A DNA stretch of 64,000 nucleotides from Dehalococcoidia bacterium (GTDB lineage: Bacteria; Chloroflexota; Dehalococcoidia; SM23-28-2), in NCBI GenBank assembly GCA_020356025.1, contig CP070630.1, forward strand, positions 2,040,443 to 2,104,442, in the 5' to 3' direction. The notes beneath the pieces were generated by a model. That model was not told where the DNA came from. It searched no databases and saw nothing but the letters and a program-made list of their open reading frames with translations. Positions 7,958 to 27,721 of the stretch are shown here, one piece after another (the stretch's first letter is position 1; each line of letters begins with the position of its first letter). Position numbers and translations under genes: made by a program.

Positions 7958-8992
7958 TTAGGTCGGCACCACCACTATCTTGCCAAAATGGTCGCGGCTG
8001 GCGAGTTGGCGTACGGCGGCCTGCACCTCGCTCAAGGGGTAGACGCGATCCACCACCGGTCGTAGTTGGCCACTGCGGAAATAGGGCATCATCCCCAGCA
8101 GCTCGCTCTTGGTTCCCATGAACGACCCCAGGAAGGTTTGCTGACGCAGGAAGAAGGACCAAATGTTGAAGTCGGCCGTCCGCCCCGCCGTGACGCCACA
8201 GGTGACCAGGCGGCCGTTCCTGGCCAGGGCCTGCAAGCTCTTCTCGAAGATCTCCCCGCCGATGTGCTCGAAGACCACATCCACGCCGCAGCCGTCAGTG
8301 AGGCGAAGCGTCTCCTGGCCCAGATCGCTGGCGTTGTAGTTGATGCCCTCGTCGGCGCCCAGAGCCCTTGCCTTCTCCAGCTTAGGGTCGGAGCCGGCGC
8401 TGGCGATCACTCTGGCCCCCAGCAGCTTGGCGATCTGGATGGCCGCGATGCCCACGCCGCTGCCCGCCGCGTTCACCAGAACCGTTTCGTTCCGCTGTAG
8501 GTCGGCCCGAGTCACCAGCATGTGCCAGGCGGTGACGAATACCAAGGGGATGGAGGCTGCCTCCTCGAAGGAGAGGTTCTCGGGCATGGGGATGATGTTG
8601 GTCGCCGGTATCTTGATCAGCTCGGCGAAGCCGCCGTCGTAGGGGCCCTGGCCCAGAATGCTGTACGAGGGGCACAGGTTGTCCACGCCCGCCAGGCAGG
8701 CCTGACAGATGCCGCAGCTCACTCCCGGCTGAAGCATCACCTTCGAGCCCACTTCGATGCCCGAGACAACGTCTCCCACCGTCTCCACCACGCCCGCCAC
8801 ATCGCTGCCCAGAATGCGGGGCTTGGAGAAAGTGGTGCCGGGTGGCATCACCGTGGCCCACACCTCCAGGTGATTCAGGGCGCAGCCTTTCACCCGCACC
8901 AGCACCTCGTTGGCAGCGACCTCCGGGTCGGGGGCGTCCTCGTAGACAAACTTCTCCACTCCCCCCGACTCGTGCATGCGTACCGCCTTCAT
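7958..8992 (-). CDS. Zinc-binding dehydrogenase / quinone-oxidoreductase (MDR) family
   Basis: ALNHLE, ILGSDVAG, structural Zn CGICQAC...C, AAGSGVG dinucleotide-binding motif. Confidence 0.88.
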   Translation of the reverse strand: MKAVRMHESGGVEKFVYEDAPDPEVAANEVLVRVKGCALNHLEVWATVMPPGTTFSKPRILGSDVAGVVETVGDVVSGIEVGSKVMLQPGVSCGICQACLAGVDNLCPSYSILGQGPYDGGFAELIKIPATNIIPMPENLSFEEAASIPLVFVTAWHMLVTRADLQRNETVLVNAAGSGVGIAAIQIAKLLGARVIASAGSDPKLEKARALGADEGINYNASDLGQETLRLTDGCGVDVVFEHIGGEIFEKSLQALARNGRLVTCGVTAGRTADFNIWSFFLRQQTFLGSFMGTKSELLGMMPYFRSGQLRPVVDRVYPLSEVQAAVRQLASRDHFGKIVVVPT

Positions 8993-9062
8993 CGACTCCT
9001 CCTGCCTTTACCGCACGGCCAACCCAGCCTACAATCGACTTGCAGTATACCAGAGGAGGCTG

Positions 9063-9509
9063 TTGAAGACGTCCCCGCTCACCCTCAAGGTAAGGCGACT
9101 GCGGCCCGGAGCCAAGCTCCCTCAGCGGGCCACTCCCGGCTCCACCGGCCTCGACCTGTTTGCCTGCATCGAAGGGACAGGCTCCATCGAGCTCGGGCGA
9201 GACCCTGTCCTGGTACCTACGGGCATCGCCATCGAGGTTCCGCCGGGCTACGATGCTCAGGTGCGGCCCCGCTCCGGCCTCTCGGCCAAGGGGGTAGGCG
9301 TCACATTCGGCACAATCGACAGCGACTACCGGGGAGAGGTGCTGGTCACGATGCACCTCTTCGGCGCCCTCGATTCACACACCATCCGCCACGGCGATCG
9401 CATCGCTCAGCTTGTGATCAGCCGCTGGGTCGACCTGCCGGTTGTGGAGGTGGAGAACCTAACGGAGACGGAGCGCGGCCCGGGGGGCCACGGCTCGACC
9501 GGCCTCTGA
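9063..9509 (+). CDS. dut: dUTP diphosphatase
   Basis: All five motifs: GLDL, RSGLS, GTIDSDYRGEV, GDRIAQL, RGPGGHGSTG; TTG start after GAGGAGG. Confidence 0.93.
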   Translation: MKTSPLTLKVRRLRPGAKLPQRATPGSTGLDLFACIEGTGSIELGRDPVLVPTGIAIEVPPGYDAQVRPRSGLSAKGVGVTFGTIDSDYRGEVLVTMHLFGALDSHTIRHGDRIAQLVISRWVDLPVVEVENLTETERGPGGHGSTGL

Positions 9510-9516
9510 GCGCGGC

Positions 9517-11103
9517 CTACGACGGAGGCGCCAGCCGCCGCTCCAGCTCTCGCCGGGCTTCTTCCACGCACTCGGCCCACGGCTCGTCGCAGTCCGCTAC
9601 CATGTGCTCGTCGGGTGGCAGTTCCGTCACCGCCTGGAAGACCTGTTTCTGAGCCTCGTAGATCTCCCAGCGGGCGTCGGAGGCATCCTGCCCGGCCCGC
9701 AAGCGCTCCCCCAGCCGTTGGCGAATGACCTTCTCCTCGGCCCGGCACTCCAGGCACAAGAAGCGAGCGCCCATCGCCTGGGCGAGATCTCTCGCCTTCT
9801 GGCGATAGTCCCGCTGGGCAAACGTGGCGTCGACAATCACCGACCGCCCTTCGGCCAGAAACGCGCGCGCTCGCTCCAGCAGCGCTTTGTAGGCGCGCTG
9901 GGTGAAGCGCGAGGAGTAGATGCCCCTGCCGAAGGGTTCGAAGCGACGCTCCCGCGGCGCAAGCCCGGCCAGTTCCTTGCGCACCACGTCGGAAGAGATG
10001 ACAGGCATGTCCGTGGCCTCGCCCAGGGCCTGGGCCAGCATCGTCTTGCCGCTGGCCACCAGCCCGCAGGTGATGAGAAGGAGAGGCGGCGGCTGCTCGG
10101 CCGCGTACTGGCAGGCCAACCGGAAGTAGCGGCGAGCCGCCCAGCGGGCCTGCTCCTTCTCCTCTGCGCTGACCTCCGCCTGGCCCAGCCTGAAGCTCTC
10201 CACCTTGCCCCGCACGCAGGCCCGATAGCATTTGTAGAAGCCGATGAGGTCCACGATCTCGGGATCGCCCGCTGCCTGGGCGTAGCGTTGTACCAGGACG
10301 TCCGCCAGCTCGGGCCGACTGCGAAAGTCCAGGTCCATGCCCAGAAAGCCGATATCCCCCGCCACGTCCGTGTAGCGGAATCGGCGGTTGAACTCGATGC
10401 AATCGAAGATGCATATGCCATCGACGAAGCAGACGCTTTCAGAGCGGACATCGCCGTGGCAGTCGCGGATGCGCTCCTGCTCAATGCGCCGCTCCAGCAG
10501 GGGCCGCTGGCGGACGAAGAAGGAGCGGACGTATGCCTGGAGGTAGCGGTCCTGCTCTGCCGTTATCGTATCGCCGATGAAGGGCGCCCACTGCTCGAAG
10601 TTCTCCTCCCAAGCCACGCGGATGGCCCGCGCTCCGTAGCGGGCAATCGCCGGACTGGTAGCCGCTCGGGCGTGGAAGTCGGCCAGCCGCTCGGCCACGG
10701 CCTCGACCATGCTCGGCGATACTTTGCCCGCTGCCAGCAGGCTGTCTATCATGCGGTCGCCCGGCAGGCGGCGCATCTTGACGGCATACTCCACCGCCTT
10801 GCCTCGCCCCTCCAGACGAAAACGTCCGTCCTGCCAAGCCACTCGCACGACCCCCTGGTAGGCTCCAGGGCACAGACGGCGGTTGAGGATGACCTCCTGG
10901 CGGCAGTAGTAGCGCCGCTTGGCCAACGAGGTGAAGTTCAGGAAACCGAAGTCCACCGGCTTCTTGATCTTGTAGACGAAATCGCCCGCCAGCAGTACGT
11001 AGGAAATGTGGGTCTGCACCAGCTCAACCTTCCCCACCGCATAGGGATAGGCGGCCGGCTCCAGCAGCCCTCGAATCAGCTCCGGCAGCTCTCCTGTAGA
11101 CAC
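9517..11103 (-). CDS. Aminoglycoside-phosphotransferase-like domain fused to an AAA_33/gluconokinase-like P-loop domain
   Basis: ETHIS-like QTHISYV, YKIKKPVDFGFL, HGDVR, IFDCIEFN, GLVASGKT; start reassigned to GTG 11103 with GGAGG RBS. Confidence 0.85.
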   Translation of the reverse strand: MSTGELPELIRGLLEPAAYPYAVGKVELVQTHISYVLLAGDFVYKIKKPVDFGFLNFTSLAKRRYYCRQEVILNRRLCPGAYQGVVRVAWQDGRFRLEGRGKAVEYAVKMRRLPGDRMIDSLLAAGKVSPSMVEAVAERLADFHARAATSPAIARYGARAIRVAWEENFEQWAPFIGDTITAEQDRYLQAYVRSFFVRQRPLLERRIEQERIRDCHGDVRSESVCFVDGICIFDCIEFNRRFRYTDVAGDIGFLGMDLDFRSRPELADVLVQRYAQAAGDPEIVDLIGFYKCYRACVRGKVESFRLGQAEVSAEEKEQARWAARRYFRLACQYAAEQPPPLLLITCGLVASGKTMLAQALGEATDMPVISSDVVRKELAGLAPRERRFEPFGRGIYSSRFTQRAYKALLERARAFLAEGRSVIVDATFAQRDYRQKARDLAQAMGARFLCLECRAEEKVIRQRLGERLRAGQDASDARWEIYEAQKQVFQAVTELPPDEHMVADCDEPWAECVEEARRELERRLAPPS

Positions 11104-11172
11104 TGCTTCTCTCTGCCCTCCGAAGTATAGCACCCATCTGGGCAGGCGGCGTATACTGCTCCTGAGGGCGCC

Positions 11173-23796: not shown

Positions 23797-24875
23797 CCGA
23801 TCTTGACGTTGGCCAGCCTCGCCGCCTTCGCTGCCTTGAGGCATTCGTCGGCGTGACGACGAGAGGTCGTTGGCAGGTTGCCCATGAAGAAGTGAGGGTA
23901 GAAGGCCAGAAGGCTGTAGGGGATGGTCGGGTCGAGGGAGGCGATGAAGCGGGCGATCTGACCCACCTCGTGCGCGTCGACGTAGCCGGGTACCAGGAGG
24001 GTGCTCGCGGTGAGGAAGGGCGGCTCCTGCCGCTGGCCGAAGAGCCCACCTAGCCAAGCGAAGTTCTCCAGCGTTCGCTTGTTGCTCACTCCGCACAGAG
24101 CGAGGTAAAGGTTCTCGTCCCAGGCCTTCAGGTCGAACTTGATGGTGCCGCCCGAGTCCATGGCCAGCGCGCTCGCCTGGCGCAGGAGGGAAGGCGACAT
24201 GCTGCCGTTGGTCTCCCAGCAGATGCGCAGAGGGCGAGCCCGCCGCTCGCGCAGGGCCCGGCGGGCGGTGGCGATAGCGTGGGGCATCTGAGGTGATGGG
24301 TCTCCCCCGAAGTAGCAGATACAGGCTGTGCTCTCGTCTACGCAGTCGGCCAACTCCTGCGCGCTCATTGTAGGTGCCAGGCGGTGAGCCAGGGTGCGGT
24401 AGTGCCAGTTCTGACAGAACAGGCAGTCGAAGCTGCAGGCTCCGTAGAACACCGCCAGGTTCTTGAAGCCGCGGCTCTCCTTCTCGGCGCAGACCCATTC
24501 GGCCACACAGTTCGTGGGCAGGGGATCGTAGTACCACTCCAGGATGCCGCTGGCGGCCGTCCCGCCCAGGTGCGTGAGCTTCCCGCCACGATTGCTGCGC
24601 AAGCCGCAGTAGCCCAGTTCGTCTTCGGGGATCTGGCACTCGTTGGCGCAGAAGGTGCAGGGCACACCGTCGGCCACCTGGGGCGGCTCGACAGGCAGGC
24701 CGAACTGTCTTCGGGCCTCGGCGTGCACGCCCTTCAGGTGAGGCATCACTCTATCCGGCTGCTGGCGGATGCAGTCCAGGCACGTCCCCAGATTGGCGGC
24801 GATCAGCAGCGAGCTCTTGCCGCAGCCCTGGCAGGTGCCCTCCTTCAAACGAGGCGCCGACAGGTAGCGGATCAT
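23766..24875 (-). CDS. Radical SAM protein, PflA/AmmeMemoRadiSam-like
   Basis: CSFDCLFC motif, N-terminal CxxC clusters, CYFGGDP, WETNG, DLKA. Confidence 0.85.
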   Translation of the reverse strand: MIRYLSAPRLKEGTCQGCGKSSLLIAANLGTCLDCIRQQPDRVMPHLKGVHAEARRQFGLPVEPPQVADGVPCTFCANECQIPEDELGYCGLRSNRGGKLTHLGGTAASGILEWYYDPLPTNCVAEWVCAEKESRGFKNLAVFYGACSFDCLFCQNWHYRTLAHRLAPTMSAQELADCVDESTACICYFGGDPSPQMPHAIATARRALRERRARPLRICWETNGSMSPSLLRQASALAMDSGGTIKFDLKAWDENLYLALCGVSNKRTLENFAWLGGLFGQRQEPPFLTASTLLVPGYVDAHEVGQIARFIASLDPTIPYSLLAFYPHFFMGNLPTTSRRHADECLKAAKAARLANVKIGNLHLLSGLY

Positions 24876-25109
24876 CGACCTCTCTCCAGCGCCTAGTGTA
24901 TCATGGCCAGCCCGATCGTCCCTCGCGTTCCATTATGGTAAACTTGAACGGCCATAGACTTGACGCAGCGCTTGCGGTCGCGCTAAAACCAGCATGGCAC
25001 CCGCAAAGACAGCGACCTTGCACTGAACCGACGGTGGTGCAGGTTGCGATGAGGCCAGGCGGGTTTGATATCGGCTCTTTCCGTTGAATGGGCTTCGCCA
25101 GGAGGTGTG

Positions 25110-26516
25110 ATGACAGGCATCAAATCTTACGGAGCCTATGTCCCCAAATATCGTCTGGGCAAGGAAACGGCGGGCTGGGGATTTCCCGCCGAGAAGGCAG
25201 TGGCCAACTTCGACGAGGACAGCATAACGATGGCGGTTGCTGCCGGAATGGACTGTCTCAGGGGGATAGATAGATCCCAGGTGGATGGCATCTTATATGC
25301 CACTACCACCTCGCCCTACGTCGAGAAGCAGGGGGCAGCCCTGATCGCCGCCGCCCTCGACCTGCGACGGGACATCACCAGCGCCGACGTCACCGATGTG
25401 CTTCGGGCGGGGACCACCGCCCTCAAGATGGCCATGGACGCTGTCCAGGCGGGCACGGCCAGCAATATACTGGTGATTGCCTCTGACTGTCGCATGGCGA
25501 CCCCCAAGGGCGGCTTGGACCGAGCGATGGGTGACGGAGCTGTTGCCCTGCTCATCGCCAAGGACGGCGTGGCCGCTGAGGTAGAGGCGGACTACCACAT
25601 CACCGACCACATGCTGGACGTGTGGCGCTCCAGCGACGAAAGCACCGTCAGGAGCTGGGAAGACCGCTTCGTCATCGAGGAAGGGATCCTGCGGGTCATT
25701 CCAGAGGCGGTATCGGCATTCATGGCCAAGAACAACCTGGCCCCAAAGGACTTCCAGAAGGCCGCTTACCACTCCAGTGACGCCCGCAGGCACGCCGCGT
25801 TGGCAAAGATGATGGGGTTCGAAGCCGCTCAGGTTCAGGACCCCCTCTACGACCAGATGGGGAATACCGGCGCTGCCTTCCCCCTGATGCTGCTGGTGGC
25901 AGCCTTGGAGGAGGCTAAGACCGGCGACAGGATCATGGTGGCGGGCTACGGTGATGGCTGCGATGTCTACTCGATCAAGGCCGGAGAGGGCATCGACAAG
26001 CTCCGGCAGGGGCATCGCGGCGTTAAGAAGCATGTGGAGGCGAAGCGAGTCCTAGAGACCTACGACGAGTACCTCCGCTGGCGGGGCCTGATGACTGTGG
26101 CTGGAGTGCGCCGGCCGACAGCCAGCGGCCCGTCCGCTTCCGCCCTTTGGCGCGAGACCGATCGGGTTATCCAGATGTACGGCTCCAAGTGCAGGAAATG
26201 CGGCTACGTGCAGTTCCCGCCCCAGCGCGTCTGCGTGGAGTGCCACGCCAAGGACGAGATGGACAACGTTCGCCTCTCCGACAAGCCAGCGACCGTGGCC
26301 ACCTACGCCATGGATTATCTGTCGGGAACTACCGATGTCCCTTTGGTGATAGCGGTGATAAACTTTAAGGGTGGCGGTCGCATGCTCTCCATGATGACCG
26401 ATCGGGAAACTGGTGAGCTAAGCGTGGGTATGCCGGTGGAGATGAGCTTCCGCAAGATACGCTCCGCAGGCGGGATTCACAACTACTACTGGAAGTCCAC
26501 ACCGGTGAGGGCATAA
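25110..26516 (+). CDS. HMG-CoA-synthase-like domain (catalytic Cys absent) fused to a DUF35 Zn-ribbon/OB-fold
   Basis: SYGAYVP, DEDSITMA, DVLRAGT at the ACKAGT position, GNTGAA; C-terminal CRKCG...CVEC plus OB-fold. Confidence 0.85.
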   Translation: MTGIKSYGAYVPKYRLGKETAGWGFPAEKAVANFDEDSITMAVAAGMDCLRGIDRSQVDGILYATTTSPYVEKQGAALIAAALDLRRDITSADVTDVLRAGTTALKMAMDAVQAGTASNILVIASDCRMATPKGGLDRAMGDGAVALLIAKDGVAAEVEADYHITDHMLDVWRSSDESTVRSWEDRFVIEEGILRVIPEAVSAFMAKNNLAPKDFQKAAYHSSDARRHAALAKMMGFEAAQVQDPLYDQMGNTGAAFPLMLLVAALEEAKTGDRIMVAGYGDGCDVYSIKAGEGIDKLRQGHRGVKKHVEAKRVLETYDEYLRWRGLMTVAGVRRPTASGPSASALWRETDRVIQMYGSKCRKCGYVQFPPQRVCVECHAKDEMDNVRLSDKPATVATYAMDYLSGTTDVPLVIAVINFKGGGRMLSMMTDRETGELSVGMPVEMSFRKIRSAGGIHNYYWKSTPVRA

Positions 26517-26533
26517 GCTCTAAGGGAACGACA

Positions 26534-27721
26534 ATGACAGAAGGTATTAAGGACAGGGTTGCCATAGTTGGAATGGGTTGCACCAAGTTCGGGGAGCGCT
26601 GGGATGTCAGCGGTCTCGACATGATGGTTGAGGCCTGCTACGAGGCCTATGAGGACGCCGGTCTGGAGCCCAAGGATATCCAGGCGGCCTGGCTTGGCAC
26701 CGTCGCCAGCTTCAACACCGGCCAACCAGCGGCCGAGGCCCTGAAGTTGGACTACATTCCCATTACGCGCGTCGAGAACGCCTGCGCCACCGCCACCGAC
26801 GCTTTCAGGAACGCCTGCTACGCCGTAGCCGCCGGCATCTACGACATTGTCCTGGCGGTGGGGGTGGAGAAGCTAAAGGACTCAGGATTCGCTGGCCTTG
26901 CCACTGGCGTACAGTCGGGCTCAGGCGTGGAGCCACCCAGTCCGCCGCCGGTTCAGTTCGCCCTGGCGGCCACGAGCTACTTCCACAAGTATGGCCTGTC
27001 CTACGATGAGGGCAAGCGTGTCCTGGGGCAGATAGCGGTGAAGAATCATCACAATGGCGCTCTCCACCCCAAGGCTCACCTGCGCCGAGAGATAACGCTG
27101 GAGCAGGTGTTGAAGGCTCCTATGATCGCTTGGCCCCTGGGCCTCTTCGATTGCTGCGGGGTCAGCGACGGTGCCTCTGCGGCCATCATCACCACGCCGG
27201 AGAACGCCCGCAAGATGCGGGACGACTATGTGCTGGTGAAGGGCCTGGGCGTCGCCGTGGGCGGTAGGCAGGGAATGCTCAGGGACGACTACGACTTCGT
27301 CCACTTCCCTGAGAACCTCGCTGCTGCCCGGCAGGCCTATGACGAGGCGGGTATCACGAACCCTCGCCAGGAGATAGACCTGGCCGTGGTTCACGACTGT
27401 TTTACCATCACTGAGCTGATCATCTACGAGGACATGGGCTTCAGCTCCAGGGGCAAGGCTAAGGAAGACGTGGAGTCGGGCGTCTTCACCCTGGAGGGTG
27501 ACCTGCCGGTCAATCCGGACGGTGGCCTCAAGTGCTTCGGTCACCCTATTGGCGCCAGCGGGCTGCGCATGATCTATGAGATCTACAAGCAGATACAGGG
27601 CAAGGCCCCCGGCCCGCCCGAGCGCCAGCTGAAGAAGGCGGACATCGGCCTGACCCACAACCTGGGTGGCCGACCAGGGTCGTTTACCTGCTCCGTCGCC
27701 ATTTTCGGTCGCAGGGATTAG
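26534..27721 (+). CDS. Thiolase, SCP2/archaeal type (acetyl-CoA acyltransferase)
   Basis: RVENACATA, KNHHNG, VHDCFT, GHPIGASG. Confidence 0.9.
   Translation: MTEGIKDRVAIVGMGCTKFGERWDVSGLDMMVEACYEAYEDAGLEPKDIQAAWLGTVASFNTGQPAAEALKLDYIPITRVENACATATDAFRNACYAVAAGIYDIVLAVGVEKLKDSGFAGLATGVQSGSGVEPPSPPPVQFALAATSYFHKYGLSYDEGKRVLGQIAVKNHHNGALHPKAHLRREITLEQVLKAPMIAWPLGLFDCCGVSDGASAAIITTPENARKMRDDYVLVKGLGVAVGGRQGMLRDDYDFVHFPENLAAARQAYDEAGITNPRQEIDLAVVHDCFTITELIIYEDMGFSSRGKAKEDVESGVFTLEGDLPVNPDGGLKCFGHPIGASGLRMIYEIYKQIQGKAPGPPERQLKKADIGLTHNLGGRPGSFTCSVAIFGRRD

Follow-up and report, generated by a model that had tools for sequence, protein, structure and literature searches.

What is an HMG-CoA synthase (HMGS) fold for when its catalytic nucleophile is missing and a thiolase gene follows it directly? 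The question is raised by two adjacent genes, here termed gene A and gene B, on the + strand of an uncultured Dehalococcoidia bacterium, within the 64,000-nucleotide stretch of DNA analysed here (the window; Table 1). A preliminary description had read gene A as a dead HMGS-like domain fused to DUF35, and had proposed that the pair encodes a PhlABC-like acyltransferase or a specialised thiolase. The positions that it gave for both genes agree with ours, and gene B starts 17 nt past the end of gene A. In our reading, which we hold with a probability of about 0.78, the two genes form an operon for a heteromeric thiolase in which the gene B product is the sole catalyst and the gene A product is a pseudo-enzyme partner.

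Table 1 Features of the gene A/gene B locus (positions in the window)
Feature	Position	Strand	Basis
Promoter-like site TCGACC-18-TATCAT, 5' of gene A	24875..24904	+	Consensus scan, 9/12 matches, weak
Ribosome-binding site AGGAGG, 4 nt ahead of gene A ATG	25100..25105	+	Sequence read
Gene A, 468 aa, HMG-CoA-synthase-like (KAS III fold) + DUF35 fusion	25110..26516	+	Pfam, NCBIfam, PDB phmmer, AF2, Foldseek
HMGS-like domain, ~residues 1-330	25110..26099	+	Alignment to 6esq_I
T66 codon	25305-25307	+	Aligned to archaeal E82; codon checked
L98 codon	25401-25403	+	Aligned to archaeal C114; codon checked
H221 codon	25770-25772	+	Aligned to archaeal H238; codon checked
N252 codon	25863-25865	+	Aligned to archaeal N270; codon checked
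DUF35 rubredoxin-like zinc ribbon, residues 358-381, Cys361/Cys364/Cys375/Cys378	26181..26252	+	Pfam PF12172
DUF35 OB-fold domain, residues 388-448	26271..26453	+	Pfam PF01796, 1.2e-8
Gene B, 395 aa, SCP2-type thiolase, motifs intact	26534..27721	+	NCBIfam NF004810, PDB matches
Gene B Cys84 codon	26783-26785	+	
Gene B HDCF, residues 287-290	27392-27403	+	
Gene B His337 (in GHP, G336-H337-P338)	27542-27544	+	

Gene A is a single open reading frame in which Pfam recognizes ACP_syn_III_C, zf-ChsH2 and OB_ChsH2_C, and the archaeal HMGS model NF003274 scores it at 216 bits, under the cut-off of 244. A phmmer search of the PDB gives PhlA as the best sequence match (9e-30 for 9skh_A and 1.5e-28 for 5m3k_A), together with the archaeal HMGS 6esq_I (1.5e-28) and the archaeal DUF35 protein 6esq_E (4.5e-16); the OB-fold part aligns with 6esq_E, with PhlB (5m3k_B) and with the DUF35 domain of ChsH2 (6ok1_B). 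The AF2 monomer model of gene A has a pLDDT of 93.3 and a pTM of 0.94, and a Foldseek search with this model returns 6esq_I at a TM-score of 0.91 and an rmsd of 1.6 Å, and PhlA at a TM-score of 0.85.

Does this fold retain the residues needed for synthase chemistry? The archaeal catalytic tetrad, numbered E82/C114/H238/N270 (PMC12960953) and checked on the 6esq_I alignment, corresponds to T66/L98/H221/N252 of gene A, such that the Glu and the Cys are gone and the His and Asn are present. The phmmer alignment to 6esq_I reproduces the match of ADVTDVLRAGT to ADLEFACKAGT on which the preliminary description had based its Cys-to-Leu replacement (C114 to L98), and its claim of a retained His is likewise borne out (H238 to H221). 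Its claim of a retained Glu is wrong, as counting residue by residue places E82 (in GSESHPY) opposite T66 (in ATTTSPY). With the nucleophile Cys and the catalytic Glu, the two residues on which catalysis depends, both lost, the conclusion that the HMGS-like domain is not a synthase is supported. The loss of both residues is family-wide: L98 and T66 are each found in 119 of 121 close homologues (at least 56% identity), none of these 121 carries Cys or Glu at the tetrad positions, and a search for active fused forms among 150 cluster representatives (33-54% identity) found Cys or Glu there in 0 of 150. By comparison, the four zinc-ribbon Cys residues are invariant in all 121 close homologues and present in 142-145 of 152 aligned rows, the latter made up of the 150 representatives, the query and the query's paralogue. 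Arg99, next to Leu98, is also invariant (121/121), and the position of His221 is mostly Tyr, Pro, Ala or Ser among the 150 representatives of the wider family. A pure scaffold would not strictly need the degree of conservation that gene A shows in keeping H221, N252 and the invariant Arg99.

The thiolase encoded by gene B is intact. It matches NF004810 (PRK06157) over residues 1-394 with 574.7 bits against a cut-off of 403, and its PDB matches include 7yvy_A (3e-59), the archaeal thiolase 6esq_A (6e-58) and BbsB (7pxp_C, 8e-44); its match to PhlC is far weaker (1e-25 to 4e-27, compared with ~1e-58 for the archaeal and other SCP2-type thiolases). The nucleophile Cys84, whose presence had been noted in the preliminary description, is accompanied by H287-D288-C289-F290 and GHP, and C84, HDxF and GH are each conserved in 68 of 69 partner thiolases.

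Could the pair nonetheless serve mevalonate synthesis? The genome, a single contig of 2.18 Mb with an estimated completeness of 83%, gave no match to HMG-CoA reductase (PF00368) but does encode IspG and two copies of IspH. The rejection of mevalonate synthesis in the preliminary description is thus upheld: the reductase not having been found and IspG and IspH being present, this pathway is unlikely. The archaeal thiolase/HMGS/DUF35 complex (6ESQ) contains the same three modules; however, in the window pair the Glu and Cys are missing from the HMGS module, which is joined to DUF35 in one polypeptide, and these differences, together with the reductase not being found, argue that the window pair is not a mevalonate-pathway channelling complex. 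The warning that an HMGS annotation would mislead also proved apt, since homologues are named 'hydroxymethylglutaryl-CoA synthase' at JGI.

The closest counterpart in architecture is a characterised one. PfACAT/HMGS-DUF35 of Pseudomonas fluorescens was described in 2026 (Nat Commun 2026;17:2196, PMC12960953); this complex makes no HMG-CoA and cleaves acetoacetyl-CoA, and the thiolytically active PfACAT requires HDxF (PMC12960953). The likeness to the window pair lies in shared architecture and motifs: an HMGS-like domain that has lost HMGS catalytic residues is covalently fused to DUF35, an adjacent ACAT-type thiolase carries the catalytic Cys, HDxF and GHx, PKS/NRPS neighbours are absent, and the host uses the MEP pathway. 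The window pair differs in its Dehalococcoidia host and in that gene A keeps the tetrad His and Asn, only the Glu and Cys being lost. More distant likenesses are seen in the BbsAB benzoylsuccinyl-CoA thiolase (7PXP) and the ChsH2(DUF35)/Ltp2 steroid aldolase (6OK1), in which a zinc-ribbon/OB DUF35 protein sits on an SCP2-type thiolase fold and which act on bulky acyl-CoA in degradative pathways. Unlike the window pair, these partners do without an HMGS-like domain and have known substrates and known pathway genes, and Ltp2 lacks the thiolase nucleophile and works as an aldolase.

An alternative hypothesis is that gene A performs the roles of both PhlA and PhlB in a Friedel-Crafts C-acyltransferase, which would take an acetyl group off acetyl-CoA or an acetylated donor and attach it to a carbon nucleophile of a small molecule. 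In PhlABC (the Pseudomonas protegens ATase, 5M3K/5MG5) and MucABC (Streptococcus macacae, 9VBO/9VBT), a dead HMGS-like subunit and a DUF35 subunit give structural support to a catalytic subunit of the thiolase fold; PhlA heads the PDB sequence matches of gene A and ranks among its top fold matches, and PhlA and MucA also lack the tetrad (PMC12960953). However, these systems consist of three separate polypeptides, whereas the HMGS-like and DUF35 parts are fused in the window pair, and PhlC and MucB lack HDxF and show no thiolysis (PMC12960953), whereas gene B keeps HDCF, a motif conserved in nearly all partners, and matches SCP2-type thiolases far above PhlC. Because HDxF is kept, a thiolase is favoured over a PhlABC-like C-acylase. 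Genomic context argues in the same direction: the phl genes lie in an antibiotic cluster with a type III PKS and the muc genes in one with an NRPS-PKS, no PKS, NRPS or type III PKS genes occur within ~7 kb on either side of the window pair, and biosynthetic partners are missing at 1,001 of 1,030 such loci in bacteria (PMC12960953). C-acylation by the window pair is in our view very unlikely, and of the two options offered by the preliminary description it is the thiolase with a structural partner that stands as the likely one.

Could the thiolase instead work in the condensing direction, forming ketoacyl-CoA independently of ACP with a reductase pulling the reaction, as has been proposed for the archaeal ketothiolase/DUF35 fatty-acid synthase? 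Thiolases are reversible, KT/DUF35 with SDR/MDR has been reported for fatty-acid synthesis in Sulfolobus acidocaldarius (bioRxiv 10.1101/2024.07.05.601840), and SDR genes lie beside the paralogue, while some family members carry a fused SDR. Nevertheless, the genome encodes a FabF-type ketoacyl synthase, so that a condensing route is not needed; acyl-CoA dehydrogenases and CoA-transferases, enzymes typical of degradative pathways, are encoded among the neighbours in other genomes; and the P. fluorescens complex did not convert acetyl-CoA to acetoacetyl-CoA in an assay without a coupling enzyme (PMC12960953). We consider this direction improbable. An exceedingly small chance is given to gene A still being an enzyme, either through a compensating residue such as Cys49 or through Cys-independent chemistry of His221, Asn252 and Arg99; its reaction might be HMG-CoA synthesis or a decarboxylation. 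H221 and N252 are kept, R99 is present in 121/121 and C49 in 120/121 close homologues, yet the nucleophile and the general base are both missing, His221 is replaced in most of the family, and no HMG-CoA reductase was found in the genome. Moreover, substitution of the whole E-C-H-N tetrad in the archaeal complex (mut4) abolished HMG-CoA formation, and the fused P. fluorescens homologue formed no HMG-CoA (PMC12960953). Cys49 was rejected as a compensating nucleophile: it aligns to Val in the archaeal HMGS and to Ala in PhlA, and 26 of 152 rows have Ala at this position, a pattern that fits a buried small residue as judged from the alignment. Of the three Cys residues of the HMGS domain, the other two, C127 and C284, vary across the family.

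For the heteromeric thiolase, the following mechanism is proposed. Gene B would cleave 3-oxoacyl-CoA reversibly, using Cys84 as the nucleophile together with the HDCF loop and His337. Gene A, an archaeal-type HMGS fold without nucleophile Cys and catalytic Glu, covalently fused to a DUF35 zinc-ribbon/OB adaptor, would clamp and stabilise the thiolase and probably supply part of a shared CoA/substrate chamber. This role is proposed by comparison with the archaeal, PhlABC and MucABC complexes, whose structures have been solved. The physical complex between the two products, the thiolytic direction and the nature of the substrate are inferred. A beta-oxidation-type route probably provides the substrate, in the form of a 3-oxoacyl-CoA other than acetoacetyl-CoA destined for isoprenoids.

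How widespread is this arrangement, and what does its gene context say about the substrate? The fusion/thiolase family comprises at least 569 loci across species genomes and is present in 51 of 121 sampled Dehalococcoidia genomes, with up to 8 copies in a single 1.2-Mb genome. The window genome itself encodes two pairs, as well as two classical thiolases; the second pair is 42% and 54% identical to the first, and its tetrad positions read TVSN and are also dead. The adjacency of the two genes is conserved, as the thiolase lies directly 3' on the same strand in most of 80 loci from many phyla, and beyond the thiolase no neighbour occurs in more than 14 of these 80 loci. Around the window pair lie a divergent radical SAM gene, a lipase insertion, a methyltransferase, an MBL-fold hydrolase and the suf operon, with no adjoining pathway partner gene among them; the MBL-fold, radical SAM and lipase genes show no conservation across the 80 loci, and the closest orthologues of the pair are placed among housekeeping genes. 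At divergent loci the neighbours include enoyl-CoA hydratase (10 loci), family III CoA-transferase (8), acyl-CoA dehydrogenase (7), SDR (6) and 3-hydroxyacyl-CoA dehydrogenase (5). The operon order in Variovorax is SDR, MaoC, fusion, ACAT, ACAD and CoA transferase, and that in Rhodococcus DK17 is fusion, ACAT, thiolase, SDR and crotonase. Natural fusions add SDR and SCP2 domains to family members, and this SDR is 60% identical to an SDR in the paralogue's operon in the window genome. P0162 (723 aa, ATP-grasp and molybdopterin-binding parts), which was set aside, looks like a chimeric gene call. These neighbours and fusions point to a beta-oxidation-type thiolase step, a context that is borrowed from more distant family members and the paralogue, not from the window locus.

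The window pair is an ordinary further member of a widespread, already characterised type, and the locus itself adds nothing beyond the published P. fluorescens case. The main value of the analysis lies in annotation: thousands of such proteins carry the name 'hydroxymethylglutaryl-CoA synthase' or 'OB-fold domain-containing protein', and the former label could falsely suggest that Dehalococcoidia, and other bacteria that use the MEP pathway, have a mevalonate pathway. The family is also a sizeable case of a pseudo-enzyme retained as the obligatory partner of a thiolase, and its gene contexts and SDR/SCP2 fusions suggest (R)-specific beta-oxidation-like modules as the place to search. We tentatively hypothesize, while regarding it as doubtful, that the dead-HMGS/DUF35 partner is a specificity module through which an SCP2-type thiolase becomes the terminal enzyme of an (R)-specific, MFE-2/SCP2-like beta-oxidation that breaks down organic acids with bulky or branched structures. 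If this is true, the retained residues His221, Asn252 and Arg99 would form the walls of a second pocket that binds a ligand, paralogues, among them the two of the window genome, would be adapted to different substrates, and, given the expansion of the family, such pairs would be the main thiolase system of sediment Dehalococcoidia for recalcitrant organic matter.

Two co-directional genes in the window encode an HMGS-like domain fused to DUF35 (gene A, the fusion) and an SCP2-type thiolase (gene B), and their layout is collected in the table. Gene A residues 2-329 match the archaeal HMG-CoA synthase model NF003274 at 216 bits, short of the model's cut-off of 244, and gene B matches NF004810 (PRK06157, SCP2-type thiolase) over its full length at 574.7 bits (cut-off 403).

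Layout and domains of the fusion/thiolase pair (domain positions are residues of gene A)
Feature	Position	Strand	Remark
Promoter-like site, weak	24875-24904	+	upstream of gene A
Ribosome-binding site AGGAGG	25100-25105	+	4 nt ahead of gene A ATG
Gene A	25110-26516	+	468 aa, ATG start
ACP_syn_III_C (KAS III/HMGS-type C-terminal half)	residues 205-285		Pfam
zf-ChsH2 zinc ribbon (DUF35 module)	residues 358-381		Pfam
OB_ChsH2_C OB fold (DUF35 module)	residues 388-448		Pfam
Gene B	26534-27721	+	395 aa, start 17 nt past gene A end

The tetrad of archaeal HMG-CoA synthase consists of E82, C114, H238 and N270 (PMC12960953), and these positions were mapped residue by residue, with codons verified, in the phmmer alignment of gene A to 6esq_I, the synthase of the archaeal thiolase/HMGS/DUF35 complex. 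Gene A carries T66, L98, H221 and N252 at the corresponding positions. The alignment bears out the exchange of Cys for Leu and the retention of His proposed in the preliminary description, and the Asn is kept as well; the Glu, however, which had been thought retained, is a Thr. With that exception, the original observation is real and mostly accurate. Among 121 homologues at least 56% identical to gene A, 119 have Leu at position 98 and 119 have Thr at position 66, the His position is occupied by Tyr in 73 and by His in 45, and Asn252, Arg99 and each of the four zinc-ribbon cysteines are present in all. Neither Cys nor Glu occurs at the two lost positions in any of 150 representatives of 50%-identity clusters that are 33-54% identical to gene A. 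As judged from these alignments, the loss of Cys and Glu extends across the whole fusion family and is not confined to gene A. Conservation is strong at Thr66 and Leu98-Arg99, and in gene A's clade also at His221 and Asn252.

Could another cysteine compensate? None is evident in alignments of gene A to its homologues, archaeal HMGS and PhlA, a component of the C-acyltransferase PhlABC. C127 and C284 are both variable, and C49 is replaced by Val in archaeal HMGS, by Ala in PhlA and by Ala in 26 of 152 aligned rows. Cys49 (window 25254-25256) is found in 120 of the 121 close homologues, the other row being a gap; it sits in a helix and is probably structural.

Searches of the PDB with phmmer place PhlA among the closest matches of gene A (9skh_A, 9e-30; 5m3k_A, 1.5e-28), with 6esq_I at 1.5e-28 and the C-terminus resembling 6esq_E, the DUF35 subunit of the archaeal complex (4.5e-16). 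AlphaFold2, given an alignment of 37 sequences, models gene A with confidence (pLDDT 93.3, pTM 0.94), and the N-terminal domain of the model fits onto 6esq_I with a TM score of 0.91 and an rmsd of 1.6 Å, onto PhlA with 0.85 and onto MucA with 0.81. For gene B, the nearest structures are archaeal-type thiolases (7yvy_A, 3e-59; 6esq_A, 6e-58), followed by BbsB (8e-44), while PhlC is far more remote (about 1e-25 to 4e-27). Gene B carries Cys84 in ENACAT, H287-D288-C289-F290 and G336-H337-P338, motifs from which it is judged to be catalytically intact and each of which is kept in 68 of 69 partner thiolases. HDCF is the fingerprint loop of SCP2-type thiolases.

What, then, does the pair do? Pairs of this kind have already been described and are very common, so that genes A and B represent a further member: mining of bacterial genomes yielded 1,030 loci with HMGS, ACAT (the thiolase) and DUF35, 1,001 of them without biosynthetic partners (PMC12960953, Nat Commun 2026). 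The representative from P. fluorescens, PfACAT/HMGS-DUF35, has a fused HMGS-DUF35 that lacks the tetrad and an ACAT with Cys, HDxF and GHx; supplied with acetyl-CoA, this complex formed neither HMG-CoA nor acetoacetyl-CoA, but it cleaved acetoacetyl-CoA, and the H294Y substitution in HDxF nearly abolished cleavage, making the His essential for thiolysis (PMC12960953). Since the window pair has the architecture and the motif pattern of this complex, its best reading is a thiolase accompanied by a non-catalytic HMGS-DUF35 partner. The preliminary description had offered either a specialised thiolase, with which the intact motifs of gene B agree, or a PhlABC-like acyltransferase. The likeness of gene A to PhlA notwithstanding, the latter is unlikely, as HDxF is kept in gene B whereas PhlABC and MucABC have lost it and perform no thiolysis (PMC12960953). 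Nor is the fusion best read as an HMG-CoA synthase: with Cys and Glu gone across the family, such an annotation would mislead, as had been anticipated. The accompanying view that the pair does not serve mevalonate synthesis also holds, in that no match to HMG-CoA reductase was found in the 2.18-Mb, single-contig genome of the host, an uncultured Dehalococcoidia bacterium (estimated completeness 83%), and because IspH (two genes) and IspG (one gene) are present there, its isoprenoids are made via the MEP route.

The host genome further encodes a FabF-type synthase, two classical thiolases, six SCP2-type thiolases and three DUF35 domains. A second fusion/thiolase pair lies at G000:C1:405515-408115 of its contig (- strand; 8507-11116 of extracted locus L004); its fusion shares 42% and its thiolase 54% identity with the window counterparts, and TVSN occupies the tetrad positions. 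Downstream on the same strand (L004:4264-8346) come genes for a luciferase-like monooxygenase, an NmrA-like NAD-binding protein and two SDRs, which together with the pair may form a catabolic operon. A third thiolase cluster (G000:C1:1870456-1874601) shows the unfused arrangement, in which a stand-alone DUF35, its OB domain lying in a ~199-aa frame, accompanies three SCP2-type thiolase genes. Beside the window's own pair there are no pathway-related genes; its neighbors are a divergent radical SAM gene, a lipase insertion, an MBL-fold hydrolase and the suf operon, and its closest orthologues also sit among housekeeping genes.

The fusion family is large and widespread, with 591 clusters at E ≤ 1e-30 in a representative-level search and at least 569 loci when a single genome was scanned for each species. 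Most of these loci belong to Dehalococcoidia and other Chloroflexota, and the nearest homologues, 87-93% identical, come from the Dehalococcoidia MAGs SM23_28_1 and SM23_28_2. The remainder fall in Actinomycetes, Thermodesulfobacteriota, Acidobacteriota, Nitrospinae, Armatimonadota and Bathyarchaeia. Cultured organisms that carry the fusion, in each case on a large plasmid, include Variovorax, Rhodococcus DK17, Sphingobium, Novosphingobium, Mycobacterium avium and Haladaptatus. Of 121 genomes sampled from the class Dehalococcoidia, 51 contain the family, with up to 8 copies each; expansion is strong in some small genomes, namely G067 (1.2 Mb, 8 matches) and G110 (1.6 Mb, 7 matches), several copies sharing one contig a few kb apart. 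The thiolase lies directly 3' of the fusion on the same strand in most of 80 loci; in Bathyarchaeia it lies upstream instead. Bathyarchaeia MAGs (L046, L052, L069) carry copies of the full-length dead fusion that share 45% identity with the Dehalococcoidia protein, suggesting that the fusion/thiolase unit was transferred between domains of life.

More divergent loci place the pair with genes for enoyl-CoA hydratase, family III CoA-transferase, acyl-CoA dehydrogenase, SDR and 3-hydroxyacyl-CoA dehydrogenase. The order in Rhodococcus DK17 is fusion, ACAT, thiolase, SDR and crotonase, and a plasmid operon of Variovorax paradoxus VAI-C (L085, 4203-12074) comprises SDR, MaoC dehydratase, fusion, ACAT, acyl-CoA dehydrogenase, CoA transferase and a TTT binding protein. 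A LysR regulator adjoins the latter operon, in which the fusion is annotated as 'OB-fold domain-containing protein' and the ACAT as acetyl-CoA acetyltransferase. Some homologues extend the family architecture, P0266 (800 aa) by a C-terminal SDR, P0200 (722 aa) by two C-terminal SCP2 domains, and P0197 (911 aa) combines HMGS-like, DUF35, SDR and SCP2 parts. The SDR at L004:5280-6248 (-), three genes downstream of the paralogous pair, shares 60% identity (2e-125) with the SDR part of P0197; at the sequence level the P0197 fusion thereby ties the family to a hydroxyacyl-CoA dehydrogenase step as a Rosetta-stone link. Together, the divergent loci, the Variovorax and Rhodococcus operons and the SDR and SCP2 fusions point to a family role in the thiolytic step of a beta-oxidation-type route, and the Variovorax paradoxus VAI-C operon, being in a cultured host, is a tractable system in which to look for the substrate.
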